64,000 nt of DNA from the IMG/VR virus record IMGVR_UViG_3300007734_000749, positions 2,650-66,649 of that record. The stretch is one strand, 5' to 3'. The stretch is from a virus. The translations under genes were made by a program, and so were the position numbers. This document shows positions 44,068 through 61,603 of this stretch, piece after piece. Within the stretch, counting starts at the first letter, position 1. Every line of letters starts with the position of its first letter. The notes beneath the pieces are model-generated. The model was given only the letters and a program-made list of their open reading frames with translations. It was not told where the DNA came from and ran no database searches.

Positions 44068-45219
44068 ATGGAAAATAATTCTTCTAATAATCTTATTTCT
44101 CGCATGCAAAAACTTGCAGGAATAATTACTGAAAACTCATATCTTCAAGACCCTAATCCTATATCTAACATTCAACAGATGAACCCTCAACAAAAACAGG
44201 ATAAAGATATTGAATGGGCTAATATGGATTACGAAGAAAAAACTAATCTTCTCCTCCAATATGTCCCAGACCCGGATAAAGCTGCATTATATGCTGATTA
44301 TGCCTGGGACAACTTACCAGATTTTCTTATAGCAAGTTTAGGAAATGTTGATTTAACTCCACAAGGTAGTCTTGAACCAATCAATGAAGAATTAGATGAA
44401 ATTTTAGCTTTACTAGAAAAAGCTGAAAAAAAAGATAAAGAAGAAGAAACTTCTGAAGAAGAAACCCCTGAAGAAACACCTGCAGAAGAAGAAACCCCTG
44501 AAGAAACCCCAGCAGAAGAAACACCCGAGGGTGAAGGAAGTGGAGATGTAAAACAAGTACAAAATGCTTTAGAACAAGCATATAATAGTGCTAAAGGATT
44601 AAATGATGAAAAACTCACAAATCAAATAGCTAATACTATTACTTATTTTACTAAAACTCAAATTCTTAAACAAACCGAAAAAGAAGAAGAAATTACTGAA
44701 GATATATTTTCATCCTTAGTAAAAGAAATCGCCCCCAAACCAGACCCAAAACAAGATAAAGTTGGAGGAAATACAAGTGCTCTAGTTACTGCATTAAAAG
44801 GTCTTGATGTCCCTGGATTAAACTCCCAATTATTAGGATCATCCCTTACTAAAATCAAACAGGGTGTTCCTGGAGATAAACTCAGCACTGGTGAATTAAA
44901 AGAAATCTCTAAAGTATTTGCCCAAATGATTCGAACAGGAAATGATAGTGCAATTAATAAAATTGCAGCAGCATTAAGAAGTATTGAATCTAAAGCAGGT
45001 AAAGAAGCATCAGCTCCAAATAAAAAAGAATTAAAAGAACAATTAATTCGTAAAATTGAAAGACTTCTTATAGAAAAACTTTCAAAAAAAGAAATGAGTG
45101 AAAAAGAAAAAATCGTAAAAGCTCTTAAATCTAATAAAAAAGATTTTGTAAAGAGATATGGTAAAGATGCTCAAAACGTAATGTATGCTACTGCTACTAA
45201 AATGGCTAAAAACAAATAA
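44068..45219 (+). CDS. candidate internal head protein with KLAGI motif and EETP repeats
   Basis: RMQKLAGIITEN near N-terminus; acidic EETP tract; C-terminal RYGKDA..VMYATATKMAK module. Confidence 0.65.
   Translation: MENNSSNNLISRMQKLAGIITENSYLQDPNPISNIQQMNPQQKQDKDIEWANMDYEEKTNLLLQYVPDPDKAALYADYAWDNLPDFLIASLGNVDLTPQGSLEPINEELDEILALLEKAEKKDKEEETSEEETPEETPAEEETPEETPAEETPEGEGSGDVKQVQNALEQAYNSAKGLNDEKLTNQIANTITYFTKTQILKQTEKEEEITEDIFSSLVKEIAPKPDPKQDKVGGNTSALVTALKGLDVPGLNSQLLGSSLTKIKQGVPGDKLSTGELKEISKVFAQMIRTGNDSAINKIAAALRSIESKAGKEASAPNKKELKEQLIRKIERLLIEKLSKKEMSEKEKIVKALKSNKKDFVKRYGKDAQNVMYATATKMAKNK
44443..44530 (+). repeat. coding tandem repeat GAAGAAAC(A/C)CC (EETP)
   Basis: Repeated units inside 44068..45219. 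Confidence 0.8.
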
Positions 45220-45734
45220 TGACTAAAAAAGAATTAAGAGATAGTATTAAAGCAGTTGCTAAAGAACTATATAAATCTATTAACACAAAAGTAGATTTAG
45301 ATACTTCTTTTACAGGAGTATCTCTAGATATTGAAAGATATCCATTATTAGCAAAATTTCCATCTTTAAGAATTACTATAGAAAAACTTCTTACATCTCA
45401 ATATGATTTGTTTATAGAAGATATTTTATGGGTAGCACCTCGCCCTACTACTTTTAAGGTTGTTTTTAATAATGGTCAATCTTTTTATTTAATATCTCAC
45501 TCTGATGGGTTTATAGCTAAAGTAGAAGGTAAAAAATATTTCCTTAATACTTTTAATGATTTAGATAGAGCATCAGATGCTATATCACGTATACTTTCTT
45601 ATGGCTCTGCTGCCGCTCCAGAAGGAGAAACTCCAGCAGAAGAGACTCCAACTGAAGAAACACCTACAGAAGAAACCCCAACAGAAGAAACACCTGAGGA
45701 AACACCTGAGGAAACACCTGAAGAAACAGCATAA
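45219..45734 (+). CDS. hypothetical protein with EETP-repeat tail
   Basis: WVAPRPTTFKV core; C-terminal (EETP)n at 45626-45731. Confidence 0.7.
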   Translation: MTKKELRDSIKAVAKELYKSINTKVDLDTSFTGVSLDIERYPLLAKFPSLRITIEKLLTSQYDLFIEDILWVAPRPTTFKVVFNNGQSFYLISHSDGFIAKVEGKKYFLNTFNDLDRASDAISRILSYGSAAAPEGETPAEETPTEETPTEETPTEETPEETPEETPEETA

Positions 45735-45758
45735 TAATAAAAATAAATTCAACCAATC

Positions 45759-46292
45759 ATGAAAAATAATAATATAATCACAGAACAACAAGTAGAACAA
45801 ATTATACAAGAACTTATTGAAGAAGGATTTTTTGATAGACTTAAAGCTACAGCCTCAGGAACATTTGCTGGATTAAAGCAAGGAGCTAAAAATTTTCAAT
45901 CATACATGAAAGGAGATCCTAAAGGTATACTTCCTCCTAAACTAATGAAAAATTTAAATAAATTAAGTTCCTCATTATCTACTGTTGAAAAATCCCTTAC
46001 AAGCGCTTCAAATGATTTTAATACCCTCTTCCCAGCTGGCTCTGAAGCAGATTTACCTAAAGGCTTAAGTGATGTTATATCCCAATATAAAAATACTTTA
46101 GAACAAACATTACAAGCTAGTACTGCTGTACTTGATATGGTTAAACAAGGAATTGCAGACCCACAAGCCCTTCTTAAGGCCTCTAAAAAATCCCCAGCAA
46201 AAAAATCTAAAAAACCAGCACCTAAACCTGCTGCTAAATCAGGTAAATCTACACCTAAACCAACTACTAAGTCTACTAGAAGAACCCCATAA
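45759..46292 (+). CDS. hypothetical protein with K/P-rich tail
   Basis: IIQELIEE|GFFDRLKA leader; histone H1-like tail. Confidence 0.65.
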   Translation: MKNNNIITEQQVEQIIQELIEEGFFDRLKATASGTFAGLKQGAKNFQSYMKGDPKGILPPKLMKNLNKLSSSLSTVEKSLTSASNDFNTLFPAGSEADLPKGLSDVISQYKNTLEQTLQASTAVLDMVKQGIADPQALLKASKKSPAKKSKKPAPKPAAKSGKSTPKPTTKSTRRTP

Positions 46293-46309
46293 TTATTTGT
46301 TTTTAAAAC

Positions 46310-47350
46310 ATGAGTGTTTTTGATACATTTTTTACTAAGTTTTCTTACAAATTTGATAAGGGCTACCCAGACATGAAAGACCCAAAGGATATAGTTCTGC
46401 TTAAAAAATTAGTTATAGAAACATTAGGTTTAGTAATTGAAGAAAAAGACTATGATGATCAAATATTAGATCTTCTTACTAATTTATCTGATGATGAAGC
46501 AAAGAAAAAAGTAATTGCTTATTTATCTAAGATTAATAAAAAAGAAGACAAAGAAGATAATAAATTAGAAGAAAATATAACTAAACATCTTGTAAATAAA
46601 AACTTAACTGGAGATATAATAGATAGTATTTTATTTAAAGTCATTAAATCTAAACAACTACAAGAATTTTCGGATTATTTAGATAATCCTAACGTTACTC
46701 ATTCTGATTTACTAAATAATAACAACTTAAATTCTTTATTTAATGAAGTCTCACTTAACTCTGACCTAAAAAACACTATTATTAATATATCAGGAGCTTT
46801 AGGAAATATTACTTTTGGTAAAGGAGAAATAGCATTAATAGTATTTTTAAAAGGAGCTATTAAACATAAATCTTCTAAAGAACAAAAAGGAGATATCCAA
46901 ATAGAAGGTCATGTTTTAGAATTAAAACGAGGAAAATTTATTGTAGCTCCTGCTGCTTATATAAGTCGAGCTACTAAAACTGATTTATTTAAGGGTACTA
47001 AATCTAAAGAATTTATTGAAAAATATAATATAGATTTATCATCTAGAACACCTTGGCCTTCACTTATAATTAAAGCTAAGCCTGAAGAAAAAGAAGTAAA
47101 AGAAATTCTAAAGGAAATATACCCTGGATTAGATATAGATATAGATTTATCTAGCCCTGAAGCCTTAAATACGGCTGTAGGTTTAGCATTAGCTAAAGAT
47201 TATTTAGATAATAAAGATTTACTCCTTATAAGTGAACAAAATAAATACATCTGTGTTGAAAACTATAATGCTTTTAAACAGGGGGTTGAGTCTGGATTTA
47301 TAGGATTTAGCCTAGCATCAGACATTATTCCTAGATGTTACATAAATTGA
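46310..47350 (+). CDS. putative PD-(D/E)xK restriction-like nuclease with N-terminal extension
   Basis: GKGE...KGDIQIEGHVLELK motif. Confidence 0.5.
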   Translation: MSVFDTFFTKFSYKFDKGYPDMKDPKDIVLLKKLVIETLGLVIEEKDYDDQILDLLTNLSDDEAKKKVIAYLSKINKKEDKEDNKLEENITKHLVNKNLTGDIIDSILFKVIKSKQLQEFSDYLDNPNVTHSDLLNNNNLNSLFNEVSLNSDLKNTIINISGALGNITFGKGEIALIVFLKGAIKHKSSKEQKGDIQIEGHVLELKRGKFIVAPAAYISRATKTDLFKGTKSKEFIEKYNIDLSSRTPWPSLIIKAKPEEKEVKEILKEIYPGLDIDIDLSSPEALNTAVGLALAKDYLDNKDLLLISEQNKYICVENYNAFKQGVESGFIGFSLASDIIPRCYIN

Positions 47351-47377
47351 TAATATTTATAATAAAAATCTAATACT

Positions 47378-47983
47378 ATGGGATGTGCTTGTGGATGTAA
47401 TACTTGTCATATATCGCCATTACTAAATGAAGCGAAACAGTATGATGCTCCTATATCTGAAAATTTAAGATATCATATAGACAAGAAAATACCGCTTAAT
47501 GAAAGTATATTTAGAGCAGGTTCAAATGCTCATGTCAATTTACTTCAAGAAGCACGTAATCTTTGGAATCAAGGCATTATTGAATTCCAAGATTTAGATA
47601 AAAAACTATTTGAAAACACAGATCTAGGTAAAATAGGTGTTTACGAAGGTAAAGTAGTACCATTAGATTTTCCTATAATGGAAATATTAACTGAAGCAGA
47701 AAAGAAAAAGAAAAATCCTCCTTTAGGAAAACCTAAACGTGGTGGCTCAAAGAAATTTTATGTTTATGTAAGAGATCCTAAAACTAAAAACATTAAAAAA
47801 GTGTCATTTGGTCAAGTAGGAATGTCTGCAAAAATTAATGATCCAAAAGCACGTCAAGCATTTGCTAAAAGACATAAGTGTGCTCAAAAAACAGATAAAA
47901 CTAAACCTAGTTATTGGTCCTGTCGCTTACCTAGATATGCTAAATTATTAGGTCTAAAATCAACATTCTCAGGATTCTGGTAA
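47378..47983 (+). CDS. hypothetical protein with basic C-terminal module
   Basis: LTE|AEKKK...KKFYVYV...KKVSFG...FAKRHKC...YWSC. Confidence 0.7.
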   Translation: MGCACGCNTCHISPLLNEAKQYDAPISENLRYHIDKKIPLNESIFRAGSNAHVNLLQEARNLWNQGIIEFQDLDKKLFENTDLGKIGVYEGKVVPLDFPIMEILTEAEKKKKNPPLGKPKRGGSKKFYVYVRDPKTKNIKKVSFGQVGMSAKINDPKARQAFAKRHKCAQKTDKTKPSYWSCRLPRYAKLLGLKSTFSGFW

Positions 47984-47986
47984 GAT

Positions 47987-49168
47987 ATGGCAAACGATTT
48001 AAAAACATATGGTGATTTAAAAAAAGCTATTAAATCTATCACTACCAAGCAAAAAGGAGAAAAAATTGCCGGAGTAGCAGCTGATGTCCTTGCTGGTTTT
48101 ATACCAGGTGCTGATGCTGCAAAAACTACAGTAGGCTTTGTAAAAGCTCTAATGGCAAAACCAGATAATAAAAAAACTAAAACTTGGTTAGATAAGTTAG
48201 ATGTAGATGATAAATTTTCTAAAATAGTTGATGATACTGTAGAAAATGGATTCATAGATAGTATATCTCAAGATATTGCATCTAAATCTGATGATGAATC
48301 TTTAGATCCTAATTTTAACATGAATGATAAATTATCCCAATATTTAAAAGCTAAATATTCTGGTAGAACTGTGACTGGAGTATCTGAAATTATTAGAGAA
48401 ATATTATTAGAAGCTGGCTTTTCTTTTACTCCTAAAAAAGGAGGAGTAGGGGGTAGAAGATATATTCCTAAATTTTTTACTTTAGAAAAATCTATTAGAG
48501 ATCAATTTAGTGATCTTATTAAATTTTATGGAGGAGTAATGTATGTTGACCCTCAAGTTCCTATTGCTTTAGGATACTTAGAAAGAGGCAGACAATCATA
48601 TGAAAAAACCCAAAATTTTCCTTCATTAACCAAAGCCCTTCAAGACAAGCTCCCTCAACCTATTAGATTAGCCATTAAAAAAGGAGTAGAAGACCAGAAA
48701 TTAGTAAATGTTGGTGATAAACAAATGATTCCATTAGATTTAGAAATTACTAGAGATGAATTTGGGAATTATTTAATTAAAAATCCATATACTACTCTAG
48801 ACGAATATAAGTTATTCTTAACAGAAATGTTAATTTTAGAAAAAAAAAACGTATCTAATATTTATCAATTAGAATCATTATTAGTTACTGATACTAGTGT
48901 TCGTAACCAAGCTGAAATCCTTTCTGATATTCGTTCTTTACCTGGAGTTACTATTGTATCTACAGACCCATTAAATCCAAGTCAAACAGTTCAAAATAAA
49001 GATAGAGTTGAATCTAAACTTTATTTAAAAATTGACCCACATCCTTTTTTAGGTAAAGGAGGATTTGGAGACGAAGAACTCGATTCCATATACTCTAGCA
49101 TTAAAAAAATCAAAGGTGTTACCGTATTTAGAGTAATTGGTAAACCTATTAAAAAAACACTACGATGA
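47987..49168 (+). CDS. multi-module hypothetical protein
   Basis: Three segments separated by EIIREILLE|A and LTEMLILE|K; last has DIRSLPGVTIV. Confidence 0.65.
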   Translation: MANDLKTYGDLKKAIKSITTKQKGEKIAGVAADVLAGFIPGADAAKTTVGFVKALMAKPDNKKTKTWLDKLDVDDKFSKIVDDTVENGFIDSISQDIASKSDDESLDPNFNMNDKLSQYLKAKYSGRTVTGVSEIIREILLEAGFSFTPKKGGVGGRRYIPKFFTLEKSIRDQFSDLIKFYGGVMYVDPQVPIALGYLERGRQSYEKTQNFPSLTKALQDKLPQPIRLAIKKGVEDQKLVNVGDKQMIPLDLEITRDEFGNYLIKNPYTTLDEYKLFLTEMLILEKKNVSNIYQLESLLVTDTSVRNQAEILSDIRSLPGVTIVSTDPLNPSQTVQNKDRVESKLYLKIDPHPFLGKGGFGDEELDSIYSSIKKIKGVTVFRVIGKPIKKTLR

Positions 49169-49422
49169 TTAAATTAGTAGATTTACTTAAAGAAGGAAAA
49201 AAAGAAAAATATCCTCCTTACATGTATTCACCTGTAGGATTTGGTTGCCATGTTTGTGAATATTATTATATGGAAGATAACAAGCACTATTGTAATAATA
49301 AAGAATACCAAAGTTATATGGGTACTAATGAATTAGTAGATAATGAAGGTAACCAAATTCAAGATCCATCTAAATGGTGTTCAAATTGGTTTCACCCTAA
49401 AGAAAAAGATGAAACCATATAA
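49165..49422 (+). CDS. small Cys4 metal-binding protein (HiPIP-like spacing)
   Basis: MIKLVDLLKE leader; CHVCEYY...C...WCSNWF. Confidence 0.55.
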   Translation: MIKLVDLLKEGKKEKYPPYMYSPVGFGCHVCEYYYMEDNKHYCNNKEYQSYMGTNELVDNEGNQIQDPSKWCSNWFHPKEKDETI

Positions 49423-49669
49423 AGATATAGAAGTAACATATACTTATATTATTCGTGAATTTGACGAAAATATAGATCCTATTGAACTAAAATGGCATCG
49501 TGATAAAGAAGACCGTTTAGTAGAAATTATAGGAGAAACAAATTGGCAAATACAACTTGAAAACCAATTACCAACTTCTATAAATTATCAAATATTTATA
49601 CCAAAATACGAGTGGCATCGTATTATTAAAGGAACAGGAACACTAAAATTAAAAATACACAAATCATGA
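49409..49669 (+). CDS. small cupin-like protein
   Basis: WHRD.EDR and IFIP..EWHR motifs; ATG at 49409 preferred. Confidence 0.6.
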   Translation: MKPYKDIEVTYTYIIREFDENIDPIELKWHRDKEDRLVEIIGETNWQIQLENQLPTSINYQIFIPKYEWHRIIKGTGTLKLKIHKS

Positions 49670-50067
49670 AAAAATCAGATTTAAAAAATATCATTCAAGA
49701 AGAAATTGAAAATATGTTAAATGAAAATATTACTCCTATAAGTGATTTAGGTGATGTAGTTCCTTTTCTTAATGCTAATAAGGAAAAAATTTTTCAAATA
49801 GCTGATGAATATAAAGGAGATACTATGTCTATGCAAGCTGCATTAAATAATTTTCTAGCCCCATACATTGAAAACACCCCAGAATTTATAGTTACTAGAA
49901 TGAAAGCAGCTATTGGTAGTGCAATATTAAGAAGAAATGTTGCTGCTAATCCTAAATCACAAGCAGCATATGATGAATTAAAAAACACATTAAATAAAAG
50001 AAATAATCCAATGAATGAATCATTTCTTAAAATGCAAAAATTAGCTGGTATTATTACTGAAAATTAA
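49666..50067 (+). CDS. candidate internal head protein
   Basis: MKKSDLKNIIQEEI leader and C-terminal KMQKLAGIITEN. Confidence 0.65.
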   Translation: MKKSDLKNIIQEEIENMLNENITPISDLGDVVPFLNANKEKIFQIADEYKGDTMSMQAALNNFLAPYIENTPEFIVTRMKAAIGSAILRRNVAANPKSQAAYDELKNTLNKRNNPMNESFLKMQKLAGIITEN

Positions 50068-50125
50068 ACCCTAACATATAGACAGATTCATAGCCTGTCG
50101 CTTAAAAAAATAAATTATGGTAGCT

Positions 50126-50158
50126 GTGGCACCCCTAAAAAGGTGCCACTTTTATTTT
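50126..50158 (+). terminator. Rho-independent terminator
   Basis: GTGGCACC-N8-GGTGCCAC then TTTTATTTT. Confidence 0.85.
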
Positions 50159-50193
50159 GGCTTATTAAATAAATTTTATTATCTTTATAAAGT

Positions 50194-51519
50194 ATGAATA
50201 AAAAAATAGTAATTATAGGTGCAGGAGTAGCTGGTATAAATGCAGCTACTAAATTAGTTGACAATGGTTACCCTGGTAACTTAATCACAATTATAGACAA
50301 AGGTAATGACCCTCATAACCGTTTACCTGAAGAAGTAATGACAGGTATGCTCGGTGCAGGAGGATGGAGTGATGGTAAATTAACTTATCACACTGCAATT
50401 GGAGGTGTATTATCAAAATATTGTGGTGAAGAAAAAGCAATGGAATTAATGGATCAAGTCATTAGCAACTTTAGACGTTTCCATCCTAAACCAGAAGAAA
50501 TATTTTGCTCTGATCCACAAGCAGAACCTGATTTTATTAAACCATATTTTGGATTACGTTTATTCCCAGTATGGCATATTGGTTCAAATTATCTACATGA
50601 GATTGCTAAAGCATGGTATTCATATTTAGTTGATAATGGTGTTAGTTTTATGTGGAATACCGAAATCACTAATCTAAATTTATCTAATAATTGGGTTAAT
50701 TATATAGATAGTCTTAACGAAAAAGAAGCTATTACCTATGATACCCTAATATTTGCAGTAGGTAAATCAGGTATTGATTTTGCCCAAAAAACATCTAATC
50801 AATATAATCTCCCTACAGAACCTAAATCAGTTCAAATTGGGGTCCGTTTTGAAGCACCACAAAAATACTTTCAAAAACTAATTGATATTAGTTATGATTT
50901 TAAACTATATCAAAAGTTTGATAATGTATCATTACGCTCATTCTGTACTAATAATAACGCAGCTTATGTAGCAGTAGAAGAAACATATGGTGATATTAGT
51001 TACAACGGTCATGCTAAAAAAGGTGAACAATTCAGAAATGATATGACCAATTTTGGTATTTTAATGGAAATTAAAGGCATTGAAAATCCGTTTGAATGGT
51101 CAAGAAAAGTAGTAAGTGAATGTAATATAATTGATGGACAAACAGAAGAAAACTTAGGTGGTATATATTACTCACCAAATCAAACTAGACAACCATCAAA
51201 TACTTCAGAAGGAGAAAGAGTCAAATCTCATCAATCTCCTAAACAAATATTACCTTTAGTACGAAATGCTTTTGGTGGTTATTTTGAACATATTGAAAAC
51301 TTTATTGACCAAATGAATAAAGTATTTGAATTTGGTGATGATTGGGGAATGTATATTCCTGAAGTAAAGTATTTATCTCCTGAACCATTAGTAGACTATA
51401 AAAACTTAGCGTTAGTAGACTATCCAAATGTACACTTTGTAGGTGATGCCTTATCTGCTCGTGGTATTACAGTTAGTGGTGCTCAAGGAATTTATGTAGC
51501 TGAAAGTTTAATAAAATAA
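50194..51519 (+). CDS. FAD/NAD(P)-dependent oxidoreductase
   Basis: IVIIGAGVAG Rossmann motif, GAGGWSDGKL, IGVRFE, RSFC, FVGD..RGI. Confidence 0.85.
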   Translation: MNKKIVIIGAGVAGINAATKLVDNGYPGNLITIIDKGNDPHNRLPEEVMTGMLGAGGWSDGKLTYHTAIGGVLSKYCGEEKAMELMDQVISNFRRFHPKPEEIFCSDPQAEPDFIKPYFGLRLFPVWHIGSNYLHEIAKAWYSYLVDNGVSFMWNTEITNLNLSNNWVNYIDSLNEKEAITYDTLIFAVGKSGIDFAQKTSNQYNLPTEPKSVQIGVRFEAPQKYFQKLIDISYDFKLYQKFDNVSLRSFCTNNNAAYVAVEETYGDISYNGHAKKGEQFRNDMTNFGILMEIKGIENPFEWSRKVVSECNIIDGQTEENLGGIYYSPNQTRQPSNTSEGERVKSHQSPKQILPLVRNAFGGYFEHIENFIDQMNKVFEFGDDWGMYIPEVKYLSPEPLVDYKNLALVDYPNVHFVGDALSARGITVSGAQGIYVAESLIK

Positions 51520-51526
51520 AAAAGTT

Positions 51527-51763
51527 ATGCCAATAGATCAAACATTACAAGTTAAAAAATTTACATCAACTGATGGAACAATACGTTATATGAAAGATGG
51601 TAAACTACATAACTGGGAAGGACCAGCTGTAATTCATCCTGATGGTAAAGAAGAATATTTTATTAATGGTTTTCAACATACCAAGGATAGTTGGAAAAAA
51701 GCTAGAAAAGATGGTATTGGATTACCTTGGTATAAATCAAGTGTGGCTAAAGCTAGATTTTAA
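51527..51763 (+). CDS. small protein with GKLH..xGPAV repeat unit
   Basis: GKLHNWEGPAVIHPDGKEEYFING. Confidence 0.65.
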   Translation: MPIDQTLQVKKFTSTDGTIRYMKDGKLHNWEGPAVIHPDGKEEYFINGFQHTKDSWKKARKDGIGLPWYKSSVAKARF

Positions 51764-51776
51764 TTATCTTTAAAAT

Positions 51777-52307
51777 ATGAAAATAGGATTTTGTGGTACA
51801 ATGAGTGTAGGTAAATCTACACTTGTACATGCTTTAAAAGAATTACCTGAATTTAAAGATTATTTCTTTGCTACTGAACGTAGTAAATACTTACGTGATT
51901 TAGGTATCCCATTAAACACAGATAGTACATTAAAAGGTCAAACAATATTCTTAGCTGAGCGTTGTTCTGAATTAATGAGGGAAAATGTTATTACTGATAG
52001 AACAATAATTGATGTAATGGCATTTGCTGAATGTGCTCAATCAATTGAGAAAAATGAAAAACAGTCTTTTATTAATTATGCTTCTCAATTCATTAAAGAA
52101 TATGATTATATATTTTATATTTCTCCTACTGGGGTAGAAATTGAAGATAATGGTGTTAGAGAAACAAATATTGAATATCGTAATTTAATTGATATTTCTA
52201 TAAAATCTTTAATTAAATCTAATATAGATAGTTTTCAAAACTTTGGTATAATTACAGGCACTGTAGAAGAAAGAATTAAACAAGTTAAATTTTATTTAAA
52301 GTTTTAA
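51777..52307 (+). CDS. P-loop nucleoside/nucleotide kinase (NadR/AAA_28-like)
   Basis: GTMSVGKST, ITDRT, EDNGVR, GTVEER. Confidence 0.75.
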   Translation: MKIGFCGTMSVGKSTLVHALKELPEFKDYFFATERSKYLRDLGIPLNTDSTLKGQTIFLAERCSELMRENVITDRTIIDVMAFAECAQSIEKNEKQSFINYASQFIKEYDYIFYISPTGVEIEDNGVRETNIEYRNLIDISIKSLIKSNIDSFQNFGIITGTVEERIKQVKFYLKF

Positions 52308-52334
52308 TATTTATAATCAAAATTTTACTATAAA

Positions 52335-52820
52335 ATGAAACAACTTGATCTTTTAAGAAAACTCGTTAAAGAAACCCTTGAAGAAAAGGGACTTGATGAA
52401 ATGGCTCGTTTAGCCACTGGATATAAACTTACAGACAATTGGGAAGAAGCTTTTGCTTCATTGCCTCCTAATGTACAAAAATCCACTAGATTCCTTAGAG
52501 TCATTGACCATCTTAAAGAAAATCCTGGAGCTGAAATGAAAGATATAGCACTAGCCCAATTTGGTCCTAATGCTGATACTCCTGCAGTTAACCCACAAAT
52601 ACGTGCTTTACTAGATGCAGGTGTAGTTGAAAAAACAGGATATACAACTCCAAAAGCAATAAAAACTGAACCAACTGGTACTAGAGGTCGTCCAAAAGTT
52701 ACTAACGATGAATTAAAGATGATGGGTGCTCGTATAGCTTTAAAATTTGCTAAAGGAGATTCATCATATACCCCTGAAGAAGTAGAATATATCCAAAATC
52801 TCTATAATTCTTTACCTTAA
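52335..52820 (+). CDS. hypothetical protein, possible winged-helix DNA-binding
   Basis: LLRKLVKETLEE..LDE|MAR leader; helix-turn-helix-like core; RGRP. Confidence 0.55.
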   Translation: MKQLDLLRKLVKETLEEKGLDEMARLATGYKLTDNWEEAFASLPPNVQKSTRFLRVIDHLKENPGAEMKDIALAQFGPNADTPAVNPQIRALLDAGVVEKTGYTTPKAIKTEPTGTRGRPKVTNDELKMMGARIALKFAKGDSSYTPEEVEYIQNLYNSLP

Positions 52821-52884: not shown

Positions 52885-54456
52885 ATGAGTCAACCCAATT
52901 TAAAAGATATAATTCGCCAAGAATATCTTAAGTGTGTTCAAGATCCGGCACACTTTATGAAAAAATACTGTTATATTCAACATCCCCAACGTGGGAGAGT
53001 AGTATTTAATTTATATCCTTTTCAAGGTAAAGTATTAAACTTATGGAAAGATAATCCATATTCAATAGTTCTTAAATCCCGACAACTAGGAATTTCAACA
53101 TTAGCCGCAGGTTATTCTCTGTGGCTAATGTTGTTTCATAAAGATAAAAATGTACTTTGTATAGCTACTAAACAGGAAACTGCTCGTAACATGGTTACTA
53201 AGGTTAAGTTTATGTTTGATAATTTACCTTCTTGGTTAAAAATACAAGCCGAAGAAAACAATAAATTATCATTACGACTTAGTAATGGATCCCAAATCAA
53301 AGCCACATCAGCTAGTAGTGATGCCGGTCGTTCAGAAGCAGTATCTCTCTTATTAATTGATGAAGCAGCATTTATTGAAGGAATTGGTGAAATATGGGCT
53401 TCAGCCCAACAAACCTTAGCAACTGGTGGTGGAGCAATAGTATTATCTACTCCATATGGTACTGGTAACTGGTTTCATCAAACATGGGCTAGAGCAGAAG
53501 CACAAGAAAATGATTTTTTACCAATTAAATTACCATGGTTTGTCCATCCTGAACGAGATGAAGCATGGAGAAAACGCCAAGATGAATTACTAGGTGATCC
53601 TAGATTAGCATCCCAAGAATGTGACTGTGATTTTAATACATCAGGTGATGTAGTATTCTACCCAGAATGGCTTGAATTTATATCTCAAACTACTATTAAA
53701 GACCCTTTAGAAAGAAGAGGAGCCGATCAAAATTTATGGATATGGGAACCTGCAGATTATTCTAGAGATTATATGGTAGTAGCAGATGTTGCTAGAGGTG
53801 ATAGTAAAGATTTTTCTGCATTTCATGTAATAGATGTTGCTACTAATACTCAAGTAGCTGAATATAAAGGACAACTTCCTCCTAAAGAATTTGGTTATTT
53901 ACTTTGTGCTATTGCTACTGAATATAACCAAGCATTATTAGTAGTAGAGAATGCTAATATAGGATGGTCAACATTAGATGCTATACAAGAAAGAGGATAC
54001 CGAAACCTATATTTTTCCCCTAAAGGAGATTCAGTAACAGCAGAATCTTTCTATGACCAATTCTCAGATACTTCTAAAATGACCCCTGGATTTACAATGT
54101 CACTTAGAACCAGACCTTTAGTAATTAATAAGTTTAGAGAATATATAGGTGACCAAAGTGTTACTATACAGTCAAAACGTTTATTAGAAGAAATGAAAGT
54201 TTTTATCTGGAAAAATGGTCGTCCTGAAGCTCAATCTGGTTATAATGATGACTTAATAATGAGTTTTGGCATAGCAATGTTTTTAAGAGATACTTCTTTA
54301 AAATTTAGACAACAAAACTTAGACGCTGCTCGCGCTGCATTGAATAATGTAAAATCAAATAATCCCCTAGCTGGTGTTTATTCTCCTAGTAAAAATAATA
54401 ATCCATATAACATAGATATAAATGGACAAAGAGAAGACATCACCTGGTTATTATAA
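52885..54456 (+). CDS. terminase large subunit (T4 gp17-like)
   Basis: KSRQLGIST, LLIDEAAF, STPYG, ADVARG, VENANIG, DDLIMS. Confidence 0.95.
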   Translation: MSQPNLKDIIRQEYLKCVQDPAHFMKKYCYIQHPQRGRVVFNLYPFQGKVLNLWKDNPYSIVLKSRQLGISTLAAGYSLWLMLFHKDKNVLCIATKQETARNMVTKVKFMFDNLPSWLKIQAEENNKLSLRLSNGSQIKATSASSDAGRSEAVSLLLIDEAAFIEGIGEIWASAQQTLATGGGAIVLSTPYGTGNWFHQTWARAEAQENDFLPIKLPWFVHPERDEAWRKRQDELLGDPRLASQECDCDFNTSGDVVFYPEWLEFISQTTIKDPLERRGADQNLWIWEPADYSRDYMVVADVARGDSKDFSAFHVIDVATNTQVAEYKGQLPPKEFGYLLCAIATEYNQALLVVENANIGWSTLDAIQERGYRNLYFSPKGDSVTAESFYDQFSDTSKMTPGFTMSLRTRPLVINKFREYIGDQSVTIQSKRLLEEMKVFIWKNGRPEAQSGYNDDLIMSFGIAMFLRDTSLKFRQQNLDAARAALNNVKSNNPLAGVYSPSKNNNPYNIDINGQREDITWLL

Positions 54457-54471
54457 TATTTATAAATAAAA

Positions 54472-56364
54472 ATGGCTAACATAAACGTATTTACCAGACT
54501 AAAACGACTTTTCTCTACAGATGTAATTGTAAGAAATCTTGGAGGAGATAATTTAAGAGTTTTAGACGTAAATAAAATCCAAACAACTGGGGAAATTGAA
54601 ACCAATTCTCTATATGATCGTTTTACCAGATTATATACTACCAATTCTTCCCCATATTATAATTTAAATGCTAATTACCCTACTTTACGTCTTAATCTCT
54701 ACCAAGACTATGAAGTAATGGATACAGATGCTATTATAGCTTCTGCACTAGATGTTGTAGCAGATGAATGTACTCTTAAAAATGATTTAGATGAAATTCT
54801 TCAAATCCGTAGTTCTGATGAAGATATTCAAAAAACACTATATCATTTGTTTTATGACGTATTAAATGTTGAATTCAATTTGTGGTCTTGGACCCGCCAA
54901 ATGTGTAAATACGGTGATTTTTTCTTAAAATTAGAAATTGCTGAAAAATACGGTGTATATAATGTTATTCCATTCTCTGCATATAATGTAGCAAGAGAAG
55001 AAGGATATGATCCTAATAATCCTAGTTCTATTAGATTTAGATATGATCCTACAGGTAATCTAGGAGCAAGTGGGTACTATACTCAAACTACTCTTAACCG
55101 CTCAGATAACCCATCAGCATATTATTTGGATAATTATGAAATGGCTCATTTTAGATTATTAGCTGATTCTAATTTTCTTCCATATGGTCGTTCATTCTTA
55201 GAACCTGCTCGTAAATCTTATAAGCAATTAGTTTTAGTAGAAGATGCAATGCTTATTCACCGTATTGTAAGAGCCCCAGAAAGACGAGTATTCTATATTA
55301 ATGTAGGTTCAATTCCTCCAAATGAGATTGAACAATTTATGGAAAGAACTATTTCTAAAATGAAAAGAATTCCATATATGGACCCTCAAACTGGTGAATA
55401 TAATCTTAAATATAATGTTCAAAACATGTTAGAAGATTATTTTATTCCTGTAAGAGGTGGAGATGCTACAACTAAAATAGATACTACTAAAGGATTAGAT
55501 TATGATGGTATTACTGATGTAGTTTACCTAAGAGATAAAATGATGGCTGCTTTAAAAGTACCTAAAGCCTTTATGGGATATGATGCTCAACTACAAGGTA
55601 AAGCTACTTTAGCAGCCGAAGATATTCGCTTTGCTCGTACTATTGATAGAATCCAAAAAATCATCCTCTCAGAATTATATAAAATAGCTTTAGTTCACTT
55701 ATATACTCAAGGGTATACTGGTGAAAATTTATCTAATTTTGAATTAAGTTTAACTAATCCTTCTATTGTTTTTGAACAAGAAAAAATTGCTCTTCTTACA
55801 CAAAAAGTAGAATTAGCTAAAAATATTTTAGACGCTAAACTATTACCTCAAGATTGGGTTTATGATCATATCTTTAACTTTAGTGAAGACACATTTGATG
55901 AATATAGAGATCTAATCATCCAAGACCAAAAATATAAATTTAGACTAAGCCAAATAGAAACCGAAGGTAATGACCCATTAGAATCAGGTACATCTTACGG
56001 CACTCCACATGACTTAGCATCTTTATATGGTAAAGGTAGATATGCATCAGTCTCAGCTGATGTTCCTACTGGATATGAAGCCGATCTACCAGGTCGTCCT
56101 GTAGAGAAAGCAACATTTATAGATACTCAAGAAGATCCTTTAGGTAAAGATAGATTAGGTAAAAAAGATTTTAAAGATGTAGGTGCTGATGATAATAGAT
56201 TTAGGAATAGAAAAAAAGGCCCTAACACTTTTTTAACAAATGAAGATGCTAAATCTGTTGTTTTAAAAAATAAACTCATTTTTGAAACTATGGATAATAA
56301 GATAAATATTTTTCCAAAAAATAATGGAGATGGTTTCTTAGATGAAAATCTATTAAAAGATTAA
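54472..56364 (+). CDS. portal protein (T4 gp20-like)
   Basis: EDAMLIHRIVRAPERRVFYINVG, EDYFIPVRG, ALKVPK. Confidence 0.95.
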   Translation: MANINVFTRLKRLFSTDVIVRNLGGDNLRVLDVNKIQTTGEIETNSLYDRFTRLYTTNSSPYYNLNANYPTLRLNLYQDYEVMDTDAIIASALDVVADECTLKNDLDEILQIRSSDEDIQKTLYHLFYDVLNVEFNLWSWTRQMCKYGDFFLKLEIAEKYGVYNVIPFSAYNVAREEGYDPNNPSSIRFRYDPTGNLGASGYYTQTTLNRSDNPSAYYLDNYEMAHFRLLADSNFLPYGRSFLEPARKSYKQLVLVEDAMLIHRIVRAPERRVFYINVGSIPPNEIEQFMERTISKMKRIPYMDPQTGEYNLKYNVQNMLEDYFIPVRGGDATTKIDTTKGLDYDGITDVVYLRDKMMAALKVPKAFMGYDAQLQGKATLAAEDIRFARTIDRIQKIILSELYKIALVHLYTQGYTGENLSNFELSLTNPSIVFEQEKIALLTQKVELAKNILDAKLLPQDWVYDHIFNFSEDTFDEYRDLIIQDQKYKFRLSQIETEGNDPLESGTSYGTPHDLASLYGKGRYASVSADVPTGYEADLPGRPVEKATFIDTQEDPLGKDRLGKKDFKDVGADDNRFRNRKKGPNTFLTNEDAKSVVLKNKLIFETMDNKINIFPKNNGDGFLDENLLKD

Positions 56365-56396
56365 AAAAATATACATATTTATAAAAAAACAGATTA

Positions 56397-57254
56397 ATGC
56401 AACTTAAACATTCAAAATTTAAGAATACCGGAATTCTTTTTGAATTATTAGTTCGACGAGTAACAGCTGATACTTTAGAAGGTGATGATTCTAAGGCTTT
56501 AGGATTATTAAAAAAATATTTTATTAATACTGAATTAGGTAAAGAATATAAATTATTCGAAACCCTATTTAAAAATCCTAATCTTAGTGAATCTAAAGCT
56601 AACATAGCTATCACTACAGTACTAGAAGCGTCTAAAAAATTAAATAGAACAGCTTTAAGGAAAGAAAAATACAACTTAATTAAAGAAATAAAAGAAAGTT
56701 ACAATTTAGAAGAATTTTTTAAAATTAGAATTTCTCATTACAAAGCATTAGCTTCATTTGCTACTTTATTAGAAATATCTAATTCAAAAAACAATATCCA
56801 TCCTAATACTATAGTAGAAAATAAATTTACTCTTTTGGAATTTCTTACTAAAGGTATTATCAATAAAAATCAAACTAAAGATAAGTTATTAGAAGAATTT
56901 AAAAATTATGATAAGGATACTCGTATTCTTACTTATAAAGTACTTTTAAATAAATTTAATTCTAAATACGAAAATCTTAGTTCTCCCCAAAAACTTATTC
57001 TTAAAGAATATATTAATTCTGTAGATTCAACATCTAAATTAAAAGATTTTTATAATAATAAAATTAATGAAATTAAATCTAAATTATTATTATTAAATAA
57101 AAAAGTTACAGATAAGGTTACTCAAATTAAAATAGTAGAAGTATCTAAATTACTTACTGAATTGGATAAAAACCAAAAAATTAAGGATGATCACCTTATT
57201 GATCTCCTCCAATACTCAGAATTATTAGAAGAACTAAAAAAAACTATTAAATGA
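56397..57254 (+). CDS. conserved head-module protein
   Basis: KHSKFKNTGILFELLVR; between portal and protease. Confidence 0.6.
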   Translation: MQLKHSKFKNTGILFELLVRRVTADTLEGDDSKALGLLKKYFINTELGKEYKLFETLFKNPNLSESKANIAITTVLEASKKLNRTALRKEKYNLIKEIKESYNLEEFFKIRISHYKALASFATLLEISNSKNNIHPNTIVENKFTLLEFLTKGIINKNQTKDKLLEEFKNYDKDTRILTYKVLLNKFNSKYENLSSPQKLILKEYINSVDSTSKLKDFYNNKINEIKSKLLLLNKKVTDKVTQIKIVEVSKLLTELDKNQKIKDDHLIDLLQYSELLEELKKTIK

Positions 57255-57760
57255 ATAATCTAGCATATTTAAAAGAACTAATTAAGAAAAAACTCTCAGA
57301 AACTAGTATTACTGGAGGTACAGCTTCTACTACCCCAGGAACTGGTGAAGGGGTAGCTACAAAATATGCTTATTCTAATAAAAAAATTAAAAGTGTAAAA
57401 GATACAGCATATGCTTCTTTAGGTTTTAAAGATGCTAATCCTGATGTTTTATCAAAAAAACAAAAAGGCATTGAGTATAAACACTTATGGAAATCTAAAC
57501 TAAATGAAGATAATTTTAATGTTGAAAGTTATGTAAATAGTTTAAATACTCAAGATGCTAACGTTAAACAGCATGTAACTCAAAGAATGAAAGAATTTGA
57601 AGAAATAGAAATTAAACTTAATATTTTAATTCCTTTACTTCAAAAAGCTAAACAACAAACTGTCGATTACTATAAACAAAGACCATCTACAAATGATATC
57701 TATAGTACTGAATTAGCTGTAGAATATCTAAATGATTTAATAAAATTATTTAAAAAATAA
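57251..57760 (+). CDS. head-module protein with LKELIK leader
   Basis: LKELIKKKLSE|TS leader; LNE site. Confidence 0.6.
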   Translation: MNNLAYLKELIKKKLSETSITGGTASTTPGTGEGVATKYAYSNKKIKSVKDTAYASLGFKDANPDVLSKKQKGIEYKHLWKSKLNEDNFNVESYVNSLNTQDANVKQHVTQRMKEFEEIEIKLNILIPLLQKAKQQTVDYYKQRPSTNDIYSTELAVEYLNDLIKLFKK

Positions 57761-57761
57761 C

Positions 57762-59171
57762 ATGAAAACACTCCAAGACCAATATAATTTAATCAAAGAA
57801 GGAAAAGGAAATAAAGAAATTTTTCTTAAACAAGCTAAATCTTTATTCCCTCAACATGTTACCAATGCTTCTACATTCCAAGAAGTTACTACTATCTTAA
57901 AACAAAGAGGTATTCTTTCTGAAAATATCGGCGGTGTAGTCACTACAGGTACTATCCCAGATTGGTTTTCCATTTTTAATGAAAATGTATCTAAACTTGA
58001 AGAAAATCCTAATGATGGGTTTGCTGTAGAAAAACCTAATGGTGAAGTAATTAAATATTTCTCTTCATATGATGAAGCATTAGCATATGTTAATCATGTA
58101 GATCCTGATGGAATGGTAGACTTTAATATTAGACAAGTTGACACTACTCCCCAACCATTCCTAAACAAACCATCAACAAATTTAATGGAAGCTAAAGCAA
58201 TAGAAAAAAAAGCTACCAAAGAAGTAACTGATATGGAAACTAAAGGTTATGATTATAAAACACTAGATAATATTGATAATGTTTATGGGCAAGAATTTTT
58301 ATTAGGGTACTTAGTAGAAATGGGTGATGTTAAAAATTCTGATAAGTCTATAGATGAACTAAAAACTATTATTGCTAAAAACTTATCTAAAGATAGATTA
58401 TTTTATGTTAAAAAAGGACAATTTGGTATTAAAGATCTTGGATACACAGATGAGCACCCAGGACTAGGTAAATCAAAAGAACCTAAAGGAAAATATAAAT
58501 CTAGCGGATATGGTGATTTAGAAACTGAAAATTTTGAACCTGAAAAACCTAAATCAAATACTAAAGATTTGGGTGAAAAGGAAAATAAAACAGGAATGCC
58601 TAGAAAAATTGATTTAATGTCTATGGTACCTAAGTCATCTAAAGGTGTTAAAAAAATGCCTATGCCTGGTAAGGAAAAGAAAATTAAATTGCAAGAAACA
58701 GAAATGAATAATACCCAAGAACAAAAACTTCGTAATATTATTGCTAGATTAATCACAGAAGTAATTAATCAAAAAGAAATAGATGCTGCTGGTGAAGAAG
58801 CATCTGTTAAAGCTAAAACTAAATTAATTGATAAAGAAATTAATAAACGTAGAAAAAAACTTAAGGCTTTAACAACTTTAAAAGAACTTGAAGCTGATTC
58901 TGTTAATCCTAAAAAAATTAAAGAATTAAATGATGATATTAAAAAACTAGAAAAACTTAAAGATAAGCTTAATAAAAAGCCTTCTAAAAAATTATCACAA
59001 GAAGAACCTTTAAATGAACGCAGTAAAGAAGAAATTGCTGCTGCTTCTGCTGAACTAGATGCAGAAATAAAAAATAAAGAAACTCAAAAAAAAGCTATTG
59101 ATAAGTCTATTCAAGCACTTAAAAAAGCCCAAGGTACAACTAAATCTGAACAACCTACTGACGCCGCATAA
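57762..59171 (+). CDS. candidate prohead core/internal protein
   Basis: Charged, many LxE sites (LSE, LME, LQE, ITE, LNE); directly upstream of protease. Confidence 0.55.
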   Translation: MKTLQDQYNLIKEGKGNKEIFLKQAKSLFPQHVTNASTFQEVTTILKQRGILSENIGGVVTTGTIPDWFSIFNENVSKLEENPNDGFAVEKPNGEVIKYFSSYDEALAYVNHVDPDGMVDFNIRQVDTTPQPFLNKPSTNLMEAKAIEKKATKEVTDMETKGYDYKTLDNIDNVYGQEFLLGYLVEMGDVKNSDKSIDELKTIIAKNLSKDRLFYVKKGQFGIKDLGYTDEHPGLGKSKEPKGKYKSSGYGDLETENFEPEKPKSNTKDLGEKENKTGMPRKIDLMSMVPKSSKGVKKMPMPGKEKKIKLQETEMNNTQEQKLRNIIARLITEVINQKEIDAAGEEASVKAKTKLIDKEINKRRKKLKALTTLKELEADSVNPKKIKELNDDIKKLEKLKDKLNKKPSKKLSQEEPLNERSKEEIAAASAELDAEIKNKETQKKAIDKSIQALKKAQGTTKSEQPTDAA

Positions 59172-59172
59172 T

Positions 59173-59778
59173 ATGAAACAGACTTTAATTGAAACTAATA
59201 TATTTAGGCCTACTAGTAATTTAGTTATTGGTGAATCCAAGTCTGGTAATGGAAATGTCTTAGTAGAAGGAATATTAGCTACAGCTGAAGTAAAAAATGG
59301 TAATGGTAGATACTATAAAAAAGGACTTTGGAAAAGAGAAATTGATAAGTACCAAAAAAGTGTTGAAGAAAATAGAGCTTTAGGTGAACTAGATCATCCT
59401 GATTCTTCTGTTATAAATTTAAAAAATGTGTCTCACAATATTAAAAAAATATGGTGGGATGGAGATGTAATTAAAGGAGTTATTGAAATTCTTCCTACTC
59501 CTTCTGGCAATATTTTAACTTCTCTTCTTAAAAACAACATTACTGTAGGAGTATCTTCTAGAGGAATGGGATCACTAAAACAAAAAGATGATATCCTAGA
59601 AGTACAAGACGATTTTGAACTTCTTTGCTGGGATTTTGTTTCTACTCCTTCTAACCCAGGATCATATATGCAAGTCATAAGTTTAAACGAAAATAAATCA
59701 AACCCTAACCCTTACACTAAGGTTAATTCTATTATTACAGATATATTATGTGCTAATGGAACTTGCCCTATATTTTAA
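59173..59778 (+). CDS. prohead protease (T4 gp21-like)
   Basis: KNGNGRYY, ALGELDHP, SH.I, TPSG, GVSSRGMGS, DFVSTPS; ATG at 59173. Confidence 0.93.
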   Translation: MKQTLIETNIFRPTSNLVIGESKSGNGNVLVEGILATAEVKNGNGRYYKKGLWKREIDKYQKSVEENRALGELDHPDSSVINLKNVSHNIKKIWWDGDVIKGVIEILPTPSGNILTSLLKNNITVGVSSRGMGSLKQKDDILEVQDDFELLCWDFVSTPSNPGSYMQVISLNENKSNPNPYTKVNSIITDILCANGTCPIF

Positions 59779-59782
59779 TACT

Positions 59783-60013
59783 ATGAAAAATCAACCATTA
59801 TCTGAAGAATTTCGTAAAATGCAAAAAATTGCAGGAATAATTACTGAAATTGATGACATGCAAAGTCTTTATAATCAACTAGAAAAAGAATACTTTCAAG
59901 GAGATAATATAGAAGGTTTAATGACTGATGAAAGATTTAAATCTCTACCTAGAGAAATGAGAACAAAACTCCATACTGTTATATTCAATAACATGAGACA
60001 AAATTACTATTAA
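59783..60013 (+). CDS. small candidate internal head protein
   Basis: MKNQPLSEEFRKMQKIAGIITE. Confidence 0.6.
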   Translation: MKNQPLSEEFRKMQKIAGIITEIDDMQSLYNQLEKEYFQGDNIEGLMTDERFKSLPREMRTKLHTVIFNNMRQNYY

Positions 60014-60041
60014 CCCCTCTTAAAATAGTATTTTAAGATTG

Positions 60042-60071
60042 ATGCCTCATTATTGTGAGGCATTTCTCTTT
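60042..60071 (+). terminator. Rho-independent terminator
   Basis: ATGCCTCA-ttattg-TGAGGCAT then pyrimidine run. Confidence 0.7.
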
Positions 60072-60202
60072 CTGTGCATTTTTGAAGAATCCTCATATAT
60101 GTATATTAGAATATGCCATCAGTCTTATATGGCATTTAACTACAGTTAATCCCCCATTACGTTTTTATTAATAAACGTAGTTCCTAAAACAAATTTACGG
60201 AA

Positions 60203-61603
60203 ATGAAATCAAACAGAGATTTACTCAAAGAAGCTATTGCCGATGCAAAAGCCGTTAAGGAAACTGCTATTGCAAATGCTAAAGCTGCATTAGAAGAAGC
60301 ATTTACTCCTCAACTTAAATCCATGTTATCTCAACGTCTTGCTGAAATGGAAGAAGCCGATGATACTGATGAGTATGGCTTTGGAAAAAATAAAGCAGAC
60401 GGTGATGTTGGATTCGGTTCAATGGGTCAAAAGGCCTTAGATGAAACTGATGAAGAAAAAGAAGGCATGTATGAAGCTGATGAGGAAGAAGAAGCTATGA
60501 ATGAAATTGATCTTGAAGAACTTTTAGCCGAAATGGAAGAAGCTGAAGACGAAGAAGAAGCCATGATGGAAGCTGACGATAAGGAAGAAGCCATGATGGA
60601 AGCTGAAGACGAAGAAGAAGCTATGTATGAAGCTGAAGAGGAAGAAGAAGCTATGATGGAAGCAGACGACCAAGAAGAGGTTGATCTTGAAGAACTTTTA
60701 GCTGAACTTGAAGAAGCTGAAGACGAAGAAGAAGCTATGAATGAAGCTGAAGGTGAAGAAGAAGAAGAGGAAGAGGAAGAAAAAGAAGAAGCTGAAGGTG
60801 ATGATGAAGATATCAACATTGAAAGCATGTCTAAAGAAGAATTTAAGTCTTTTATTGAAGACACTATCAAAGACATGTTCAGCTCTGGTGAACTTTCATC
60901 CGATATGATGTCAGGAGGTGAAGAAGAAGAATCTAAACCACTTGATGAATATACTCTTGAAGAACTTCTTGCTGAAATGAAAGCTAAAAATGCTAAAGAC
61001 AAGTCAATGAAAAAAGAAGTTAAAACTAAAAAAGAAAAAGAACCAGTTAATGAAATAACAGACACTGCCTTAATGCTTACAGCATTAGGAACAGCACTTG
61101 GTATTCCTGCAGCTTCACTAACTATAGCTAAACTTCATGATTTAGCAAAAGCTGGAAAATTAGGAAAAGCAGGTGAAAAAGTTGCTGCTTTCTTAGAAAA
61201 AGCTGGTAAAGCTTCTTCACCTAAAGGTACTGGTGGTGGTACAGGAGGCGTAGCTGAAGCTAATGATGAAGCTAACCAAACTGAGACTATTCAAGAATTA
61301 AGAAAAGAACTTAATGAGGTTAATCTTTTAAACGCAAAACTTCTTTATACAAACAAAATTTTCAAAAACAAGTCGCTTAATGAAGCGCAAAAGGTTAAAG
61401 TTTTAACTGCTTTTGACAAAGCTAATAGTGTTAAAGAAGCAAAATTAGTATATGAAACATTAATGGAGAGCTTAAAACTTAAAAAGCCTTCAATTAATGA
61501 ATCTATGGGATTTGCTTCTAAAACAATCGGTGCTACTAAAGCTCCAATTGTAGAATCTAATAGTATGGTTGAAAGATTTAAAAAATTAGCCGGAATTAAT
61601 TAA
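60203..61603 (+). CDS. prohead scaffold protein (gp22-like)
   Basis: Highly acidic coiled coil between protease and MCP; EVNLLNAKLLY; C-terminal RFKKLAGIN. Confidence 0.85.
   Translation: MKSNRDLLKEAIADAKAVKETAIANAKAALEEAFTPQLKSMLSQRLAEMEEADDTDEYGFGKNKADGDVGFGSMGQKALDETDEEKEGMYEADEEEEAMNEIDLEELLAEMEEAEDEEEAMMEADDKEEAMMEAEDEEEAMYEAEEEEEAMMEADDQEEVDLEELLAELEEAEDEEEAMNEAEGEEEEEEEEEKEEAEGDDEDINIESMSKEEFKSFIEDTIKDMFSSGELSSDMMSGGEEEESKPLDEYTLEELLAEMKAKNAKDKSMKKEVKTKKEKEPVNEITDTALMLTALGTALGIPAASLTIAKLHDLAKAGKLGKAGEKVAAFLEKAGKASSPKGTGGGTGGVAEANDEANQTETIQELRKELNEVNLLNAKLLYTNKIFKNKSLNEAQKVKVLTAFDKANSVKEAKLVYETLMESLKLKKPSINESMGFASKTIGATKAPIVESNSMVERFKKLAGIN
60469..60750 (+). repeat. 30-nt coding tandem repeats (AEDEEEAM(M/Y/N)E) in scaffold
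   Basis: Repeated GAAGCTGAAGACGAAGAAGAAGC(C/T)ATG units; duplicated DLEELLAE block. Confidence 0.85.

Follow-up and report, generated by a model that had tools for sequence, protein, structure and literature searches.

Introduction

The capsid-targeting sequence (CTS) of phage T4, encapsulin cargo-loading peptides and mimicry of a scaffold by the protein CpmB are already known. As described in PMC9026906, PMC3012670 and PMC5694885, the T4 CTS is a short leader with a hydrophobic-x-Glu end, carried by unrelated, fast-evolving small proteins (IPI, IPII, IPIII, Alt) and removed by the protease gp21. Encapsulin peptides are described as short terminal addresses for diverse cargo in the interior of an HK97-lineage shell. 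The scaffold of phage 80alpha and CpmB of SaPI1 have, by the published account, the same helix-and-hook (RIIK) at the C-terminus, by which the capsid protein is bound; CpmB copies the last ~16 residues of the scaffold and uses the same binding site on that protein (PMC5644958). Propeptides of phiKZ and SPN3US are reported to direct proteins to the head, a gp21-related protease then cutting them after x-x-Glu (PMC5694885). The present analysis concerns a peptide, MQK[L/I]AGIITE, that recurs in unrelated proteins encoded by a 64-kb stretch of viral DNA (the window; IMG/VR record IMGVR_UViG_3300007734_000749, positions 2,650 to 66,649), part of a 66.6-kb viral contig with a G+C content of 30%.

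The peptide is probably a removable capsid-targeting tag, copied from the docking peptide of the scaffold. How the CTS of T4 recognizes the prohead has, to our knowledge, never been explained.

Tag copies and carrier proteins

In the six-frame translation of the window, the pattern K[LIVM]AG[ILV] was found five times, on the + strand only: at 44110, 50038, 59825 and 61583, the last of these in the presumed scaffold gene, and at 48062, where the match (GEKIAGVAAD) is unrelated. The longer form MQK[L/I]AGIITE is encoded at 44104, 50032 and 59819, each coordinate being that of the ATG of MQK. Tagged genes are also present upstream of the window, and the carriers of the contig are as follows (bit scores from the tag profile):

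44068..45219, + strand: carrier A, 383 aa, N-terminal MENNSSNNLISRMQKLAGIITEN; MQKLAGIITE at 44104..44133; 28.3 bits
49666..50067, + strand: carrier B, 133 aa, C-terminal ..PMNESFLKMQKLAGIITEN; MQKLAGIITE at 50032..50061, then N and the stop codon; 44.7 bits
59783..60013, + strand: carrier C, 76 aa, N-terminal MKNQPLSEEFRKMQKIAGIITEI; MQKIAGIITE at 59819..59848; 40.8 bits
contig 1820-2146, upstream of the window: carrier D, N-terminal MNKEFIRMQKLAGLVTEN
contig 2188-2874, + strand, with the 3' end at 1..228 of the window: carrier E, 229 aa, N-terminal tag MNKEFLKMQKIAGLVTES at contig 2188, upstream of the window; 25.2 and 30.3 bits for this pair of upstream carriers

The profile was built from 72 distinct tag 18-mers, all from other contigs. 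The matches are not due to chance, because the copies in the window score 28.3-44.7 bits and the best unrelated segment of the contig 4.1 bits. The six-frame search places the copies in 44068..45219, 49666..50067 and 59783..60013 and at the end of the scaffold, where the original prediction had reported them. All five carrier copies end in I-T-E or V-T-E.

The carriers had been described as unrelated to each other, which was borne out: after masking of the tag, no mutual likeness was found among the five carriers and the scaffold (best pair E = 0.3 in a database of these six sequences). Searches of Pfam, PHROGs, NCBIfam and ESM Atlas gave nothing usable on carrier function, the best ESM Atlas scores (0.83) lying in the range reached by shuffled proteins. 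Carrier A, for which no Pfam family exceeds the cut-off, has an acidic EETP-repeat region after the tag and tagged homologues on three further contigs. Acidic E-E-T-P / E-T-P repeat tracts, at 44380..44560 and 45640..45734, are present in carrier A and in the neighboring ORF 45219, the latter having no [LIVM]-x-E sites.

Carrier B has M-N-E just before its C-terminal tag and a different leader, MKKSDLKNIIQEEIENMLNE, at the N-terminus. Its homologues P0005 and P0006 (72-74% identity) have a common core with it from a conserved L-N-E-N on; they are without the C-terminal tag and carry another N-terminal leader, the junction being exactly at the conserved L-N-E. The IMG/VR search gave no relatives of carrier B. 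The gene of carrier C, for which only near-identical homologues were found, is located between the protease and scaffold genes; residues 8-37 form one helix in a single-sequence AF2 model (pLDDT 70-80). The gene of carrier D is located just before that of carrier E.

Conservation and placement of the tag

A degenerate DNA pattern for MQK[L/I/M]AGIITE matched at least 123 IMG/VR stretches, corresponding to at least 107 unique contexts; these and the other IMG/VR motif counts are samples, taken among the matches listed. In 107 contexts, Leu is encoded by all six codons, and Ala, Gly and Thr by all four, while positions outside the pattern are kept: F at -3 in 90, R/K/H at -1 in 98 and L/M at -7 in 95. 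Since codons vary synonymously while residues not forced by the pattern stay conserved, selection acts on the peptide. The leader consensus is M-K-K-Q-I-L-S-E-E-F-R-R-M-Q-K-L-A-G-I-I-T-E.

A second IMG/VR scan, for MQKLAGI alone, so that I-T-E was not imposed, gave at least 106 unique contexts, 74 of which end a long ORF within four residues, as a scaffold does; 25 of the remaining 32 are N-terminal leaders. In the first scan, the tag is N-terminal in 95 of the 107 contexts and lies at least 60 residues into the ORF in the other 12. The ORFs with internal tags encode true multi-module proteins, in some of which the tag is followed by a module of 37 aa or ~95 aa; two (L091 and L130) end 10 or 0 residues after I-T-E, as carrier B does. 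The tag is thus mainly an N-terminal leader, tolerated between modules and at C-termini. The original prediction had called it position-independent, which agrees with the internal and C-terminal copies (carrier B, L091, L130) but not with the prevalence of N-terminal ones in both scans.

Tagged proteins are diverse: with the tag masked, 86 of them fell into 67 groups at E < 1e-5, and of 83 complete tagged ORFs, none reached a Pfam cut-off. From one to four tag matches per genome were found in complete relatives of ~160 kb, two in addition to the scaffold in Flavobacterium phage immuto, near 111687 and 25073 of its record, and five on the partial contig studied here.

If the conserved unit were the DNA, as a recombination joint, promoter or other signal, the peptide would be a by-product. 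The DNA of copies A and C is almost the same, with one codon different; tagged genes are frequently in tandem; and tags occupy module junctions, after which homologues may differ (L088 continues with the 37-aa module, and its homologue L130 stops at I-T-E). The DNA similarity of the three window tags noted in the original prediction is partial, however, since in copy B other synonymous codons are used for L, A, G and I, with six synonymous differences from copy A. Codons are likewise free at L, A, G, I and T in the IMG/VR contexts with the peptide fixed, and every copy is in frame within an ORF and on one strand. An origin of the conservation in the DNA itself is extremely improbable and was rejected because of the synonymous variation; recombination at the tag may well occur, as a consequence of the tag.

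Scaffold protein and head genes

A head module of the T4 type was found on the + strand by a Pfam search of the window proteins:

52885..54456, + strand: large terminase, TerL (Pfam)
54472..56364, + strand: portal of the T4 Gp20 family (PF07230, E = 3.8e-68)
59098..59778, + strand: prohead protease of the T4 gp21 family (PF03420 Peptidase_S77, E = 2.7e-26, 92.7 bits at a cut-off of 27)
60203..61603, + strand: presumed scaffold, 466 aa, in the gp22 position by the gene order protease-scaffold-MCP; ends ..SMVERFKKLAGIN before the stop codon
61635..63320, + strand: major capsid protein (MCP), Gp23 family (PF07068, E = 5.2e-73)

PF03420, PF07230 and PF07068 exceed their curated cut-offs, and an S77 protease is therefore encoded together with Gp20 and Gp23. 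The likely start of the protease is the ATG at 59173 (MKQTLIE..). At its C-terminus (59700..59778), the protease has N-S-I-I-T-D, which resembles I-I-T-E of the tag with Asp instead of Glu. The N-terminal propeptide of the MCP contains LLE9, LLE36, LE52 and E61 as invariant columns of an alignment of 47 sequences (A1); with its conserved Glu sites, it parallels the 65-residue propeptide of T4 gp23. The named phages nearest by MCP are Flavobacterium phage immuto (vB_FspM_immuto; 55.6%) and Microcystis phage Mel-JY01 (50%), followed by an uncultured 484-kb phage (47%) and Rhodothermus phage RM378 (34%), a grouping known as 'Far-T4'. The source is an uncultured T4-like water phage, a myophage of the Far-T4 type.

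The presumed scaffold contains 21.5% Glu and 33 [LIVM]-x-E sites, a density of 7.1 per 100 aa, where MCP, portal and TerL have 1.3-1.5. It shows no sequence likeness to T4 gp22 (best BLASTP E = 18), and no family matches in Pfam, PHROG or NCBIfam. Its homologue in immuto (L204:18722-19963) is annotated as 'DNA polymerase phi-like protein', a label that is probably a low-complexity artefact of the acidic region.

The scaffold of the window ends in RFKKLAGIN (61574..61600). Around related capsid genes, 80 loci were fetched, of which 77 had upstream sequence and 76 an ORF ending just before the MCP gene. All 76 of these ORFs end in R-[F/M/W]-x-x-L-A-G-[I/L] followed by 0-9 residues, with a conserved P-I-x-E before; in 10 of them the tail is literally RMQKLAGI. 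One related scaffold (L030) terminates in LAGIITDKSYR. Tails of distant relatives are ERMKKLAGIVK in Mel-JY01, ERIKRLAGL in RM378 and SRMQKLADIS in the 484-kb phage (LR756508).

The last 170 scaffold residues, modeled by AF2 with 44 homologues, were predicted to form a helical domain (pLDDT 90-98), then a low-confidence linker of ~30 residues with a conserved K-x-P-I-x-E, a helix at 158-167, and G-I-N, the last block having a pLDDT of 80. R162, A167 and G168 are invariant across the 44 tails. When this model was compared with the PDB by Foldseek, nothing reached E <= 0.001, and the structures listed were generic helical bundles.

Likeness of the tag to the scaffold tail

Within the window, the tag and the scaffold tail have K-L-A-G-I and two conservative positions (R/K, F/M) in common, and from this window alone the likeness is weak and not convincing; it is the scaffold tails of relatives that establish it. 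The cargo-tag profile, run over the 80 loci (1.25 Mb), gave 23 matches scoring 12 bits or more, each on the strand of the MCP gene: 17 scaffold C-termini and 6 N-terminal leaders. In the reverse direction, a profile of 49 distinct scaffold tails, all from relatives, scored the scaffold of the contig at 23.3 bits and carriers A, D and B at 17.9, 14.5 and 10.8 bits, with noise at 3.4 bits. On this comparison of sequences, tag and scaffold tail represent a single motif.

Glutamate site next to the peptide

[ILVM]-x-E follows L-A-G within seven residues in 29 of the 32 contexts of the second scan that are not scaffold-like, compared with its presence in 22.8% of background 9-aa windows. With so nearly obligatory a site on the non-scaffold copies, the peptide leads into a Glu site of the T4 gp21 type. 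The suggestion that I-T-E is a potential cleavage site holds up: it fits the L/I-x-E specificity given for the T4 gp21 protease in PMC9026906, and the phage itself encodes a gp21-family protease. Upstream, [ILVM]-x-E is present within 16 residues in 66 of the 74 scaffold-like contexts and 22 of the 32 others; with sites both upstream and downstream, the peptide could therefore be excised on both sides.

The helix common to scaffold and carriers might serve some other intracellular purpose, such as oligomerization, timed degradation or regulation, so that the carriers never enter the capsid. That all carriers are orphans without virion annotation would agree with this. It would leave unexplained, however, why the same peptide stands at the scaffold end in every relative, why a Glu site follows nearly all listed non-scaffold copies, and why all copies are located on the strand of the head genes; we regard such a role as improbable.

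Proposed mechanism

In a tag copied from the scaffold, (F)-x-(R/K)-M-Q-K-(L/I)-A-G-I would correspond to the C-terminal docking peptide of the scaffold of this lineage, which in the scaffold itself would be a short helix with a tail of 2-3 residues that terminates a flexible tether. Attached to an unrelated protein, the peptide would recruit it into the assembling prohead via the docking site of the scaffold, most likely the inner face or the N-terminal part of the Gp23-type MCP and less likely the core itself. In cargo proteins, the peptide continues into I-T-E, a candidate site for the gp21-family protease, and a second [LIM]-x-E often precedes it at a short distance upstream. Cleavage of the tag after assembly would leave the cargo free inside the head, like the internal proteins of T4.

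The same purpose could be served by another partner, the scaffold tail and the tags binding each other or a different part of the scaffold core, or else the portal or the protease, with cargo joining the assembling core as in T4. The T4 internal proteins are reported to purify together with gp22, and an affinity of the CTS for the core is described (PMC9026906); the tags show no covariation with variants of the scaffold tail; and the hydrophobic residues of the leader, at -7, -3, 0, +3/+4 and +7, have a spacing that would suit helix-helix bundling too. On the other side, scaffold C-termini lie on the capsid protein in solved procapsids, as described for 80alpha (PMC5644958) and, as cited in PMC9546572, likewise for P22, T7 and SPP1. 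Docking to a partner other than the capsid protein is somewhat unlikely.

Several results weigh against a scaffold-derived tag docking on the capsid. Of the mimicry of the scaffold's capsid-binding site held in the original prediction, the likeness in sequence is supported by the RMQKLAGI tails of relatives and, for A, D and B, by the reverse profile; the scaffold tail of the window itself, however, scores just 1.2 bits with the cargo-tag profile, and carrier C just 1.8 bits with the scaffold-tail profile. On the four contigs that have both scaffold and tag, no covariation was found: the tags are constantly RMQKLAGIITE, and the scaffold tails RFKK, RWKV or RMQKI. The hydrophobic moment is convincingly above that of shuffled sequences in one of four peptides (fractions 0.04, 0.07, 0.16 and 0.40), and the amphipathicity of the scaffold peptide is not significant. 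In T4, the CTS is said in PMC9026906 to confer affinity for the core and not the shell, and by sequence comparison the C-terminus of gp22 (..AKVASRF) is unlike the CTS. Because the protein has neither likeness to T4 gp22 nor a family match, 'scaffold' is a presumed name, given from position, composition and conservation only. The C-termini of the carrier B homologues P0005 and P0006 were taken as called in protein records, the motif counts are samples as stated above, and what we infer from the sequences is that the tag docks, on which partner it does so, that it is cut off and that its carriers are encapsidated.

Whole-genome scans of RM378 and Mel-JY01, which belong to the same weighing, found the motif on the scaffold alone, with no tagged cargo. 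On these genomes, the scaffold tail is therefore the older of the two, and only later, in the immuto-like clade, was it copied onto other proteins.

More tentatively, Far-T4 phages of aquatic bacteria could possess a general peptide 'address' system, in which interchangeable clip-off tags copy docking elements of the head machinery, the scaffold tail being the clearest case. A tag, terminal on either side or placed between modules, would double as a recombination joint; orphan proteins, a very large pool with at least 67 families among those sampled, would be shuffled into the capsid and injected with the DNA. Though less probable than the scaffold-derived tag itself, such a system would, if true, provide the first explanation of how the CTS finds the prohead, namely by scaffold mimicry.

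Other leader types and neighboring genes

The original prediction called the tag a second encapsidation signal; at least two further leader types appear, from their sequences, to be present in the window. The second type, [LIVMF]-x-x-[LI]-[LI]-[RKQ]-E, begins within the first 3-5 residues of five ORFs, at the N-termini at 21043, 43760, 49165 and 49666 of the window and at contig 1588-1800 upstream of it; examples are MKKSDLKNIIQEE, MDINSIREIIRES and MKTDILKKLIKEA. On related contigs, M..IRSIIRESIQEYIKEID begins multi-module proteins with internal tags. This type may, by its pattern, be another clip-off leader. An origin from the scaffold N-terminus was dropped, because a profile of that N-terminus gave at most 4.6 bits everywhere except on the scaffold itself.

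The third type, F-[D/N]-x-x-K-W-x4-[L/F]-x-E, was found at the N-terminus of 42605..43003 (MDNFDMRKWRRSFLFE), in P0005 and P0006 and at L204:18337-18564 (immuto gp069). The spacing K-W-x4-L-x-E is that of the MCP propeptide (KWTKTGLLE), and 42605..43003 is the sole other match to the pattern on the contig. Derivation of these leaders from the MCP propeptide is unsupported, the propeptide profile giving no match above 5.1 bits.

In the block upstream of the terminase, 43417..44047 and 47378..47983 encode small, very basic, K/R-rich proteins with Cys pairs, for which PHROGs gave matches only to the families phrog_23735 and phrog_7595, both without known function; a role as DNA-associated head proteins is conceivable. 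Just 5' of carrier B, the ORF 49165..49422 shares 80 bases with 49343..49669, which is read in another frame. Directly 3' of it, within the late-gene block, 50194..51519 encodes an FAD/NAD-type oxidoreductase (Pyr_redox_2, E = 9.6e-10).

Comparison with known systems

The strings QKLAGI and LAGIITE had no occurrences in the literature searched, in which a natural cargo tag consisting of a scaffold tail and a protease site was likewise not found; the genomics paper on Far-T4 phages is silent on scaffold, prohead and internal proteins. Among uncultured T4-like phages of aquatic origin the tag is widespread, and by it dozens of orphan families can be recognized as probable capsid cargo. Such orphans, which a simple motif search finds, are candidates for proteins co-injected with the DNA, for example anti-defense factors, and a natural tag of 20 residues with a built-in release site would serve for loading foreign proteins into phage heads.

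Encapsulin cargo-loading peptides, although also short addresses for diverse cargo, differ, as far as their descriptions go, in having neither protease removal nor a copied scaffold sequence. The propeptides of phiKZ and SPN3US are likewise trimmed head-targeting sequences, but, according to PMC5694885, they are often longer than 100 residues and protein-specific rather than one portable cassette of 20 residues. In 80alpha, the scaffold ends in an 11-residue helix and a hook; the tail described here is predicted by modeling to have a 10-residue helix, a 3-residue tail and a flexible linker, and many relatives end in G-I-I-K. CpmB differs from the carriers in being an alternative scaffold of a satellite rather than cargo, and no protease site follows its motif. 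The 80alpha lineage, a Gram-positive siphovirus, is unrelated, and docking in the phage studied here would be predicted from it by analogy.

The closest parallel is with T4, which also has a gp21 protease and a Gp23/Gp20 head, and where a short leader with a hydrophobic-x-Glu end is likewise found on unrelated small proteins; the leader of IPI in the T4 record even ends in I-T-E. Asp at the cleavage position of the CTS is reported to stop processing and leave targeting intact (PMC9026906). The CTS of IPII and IPIII, MKTYQEFIAE, has no homology to the tag, only the terminal hydrophobic-x-E being common; it is loosely like the N-terminus of gp22, MLKEQLIAE, both having I-A-E and then Ala (L205:8118-8927, L206:19416-20415). 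With a tag that is visibly the terminal peptide of the scaffold, recognition of the prohead by a CTS becomes a direct question of binding. The tag leader differs from the T4 CTS in its greater length of ~22 residues, in its likeness to the scaffold tail, of which it would be a copy, and in its presence at internal and C-terminal positions as well.

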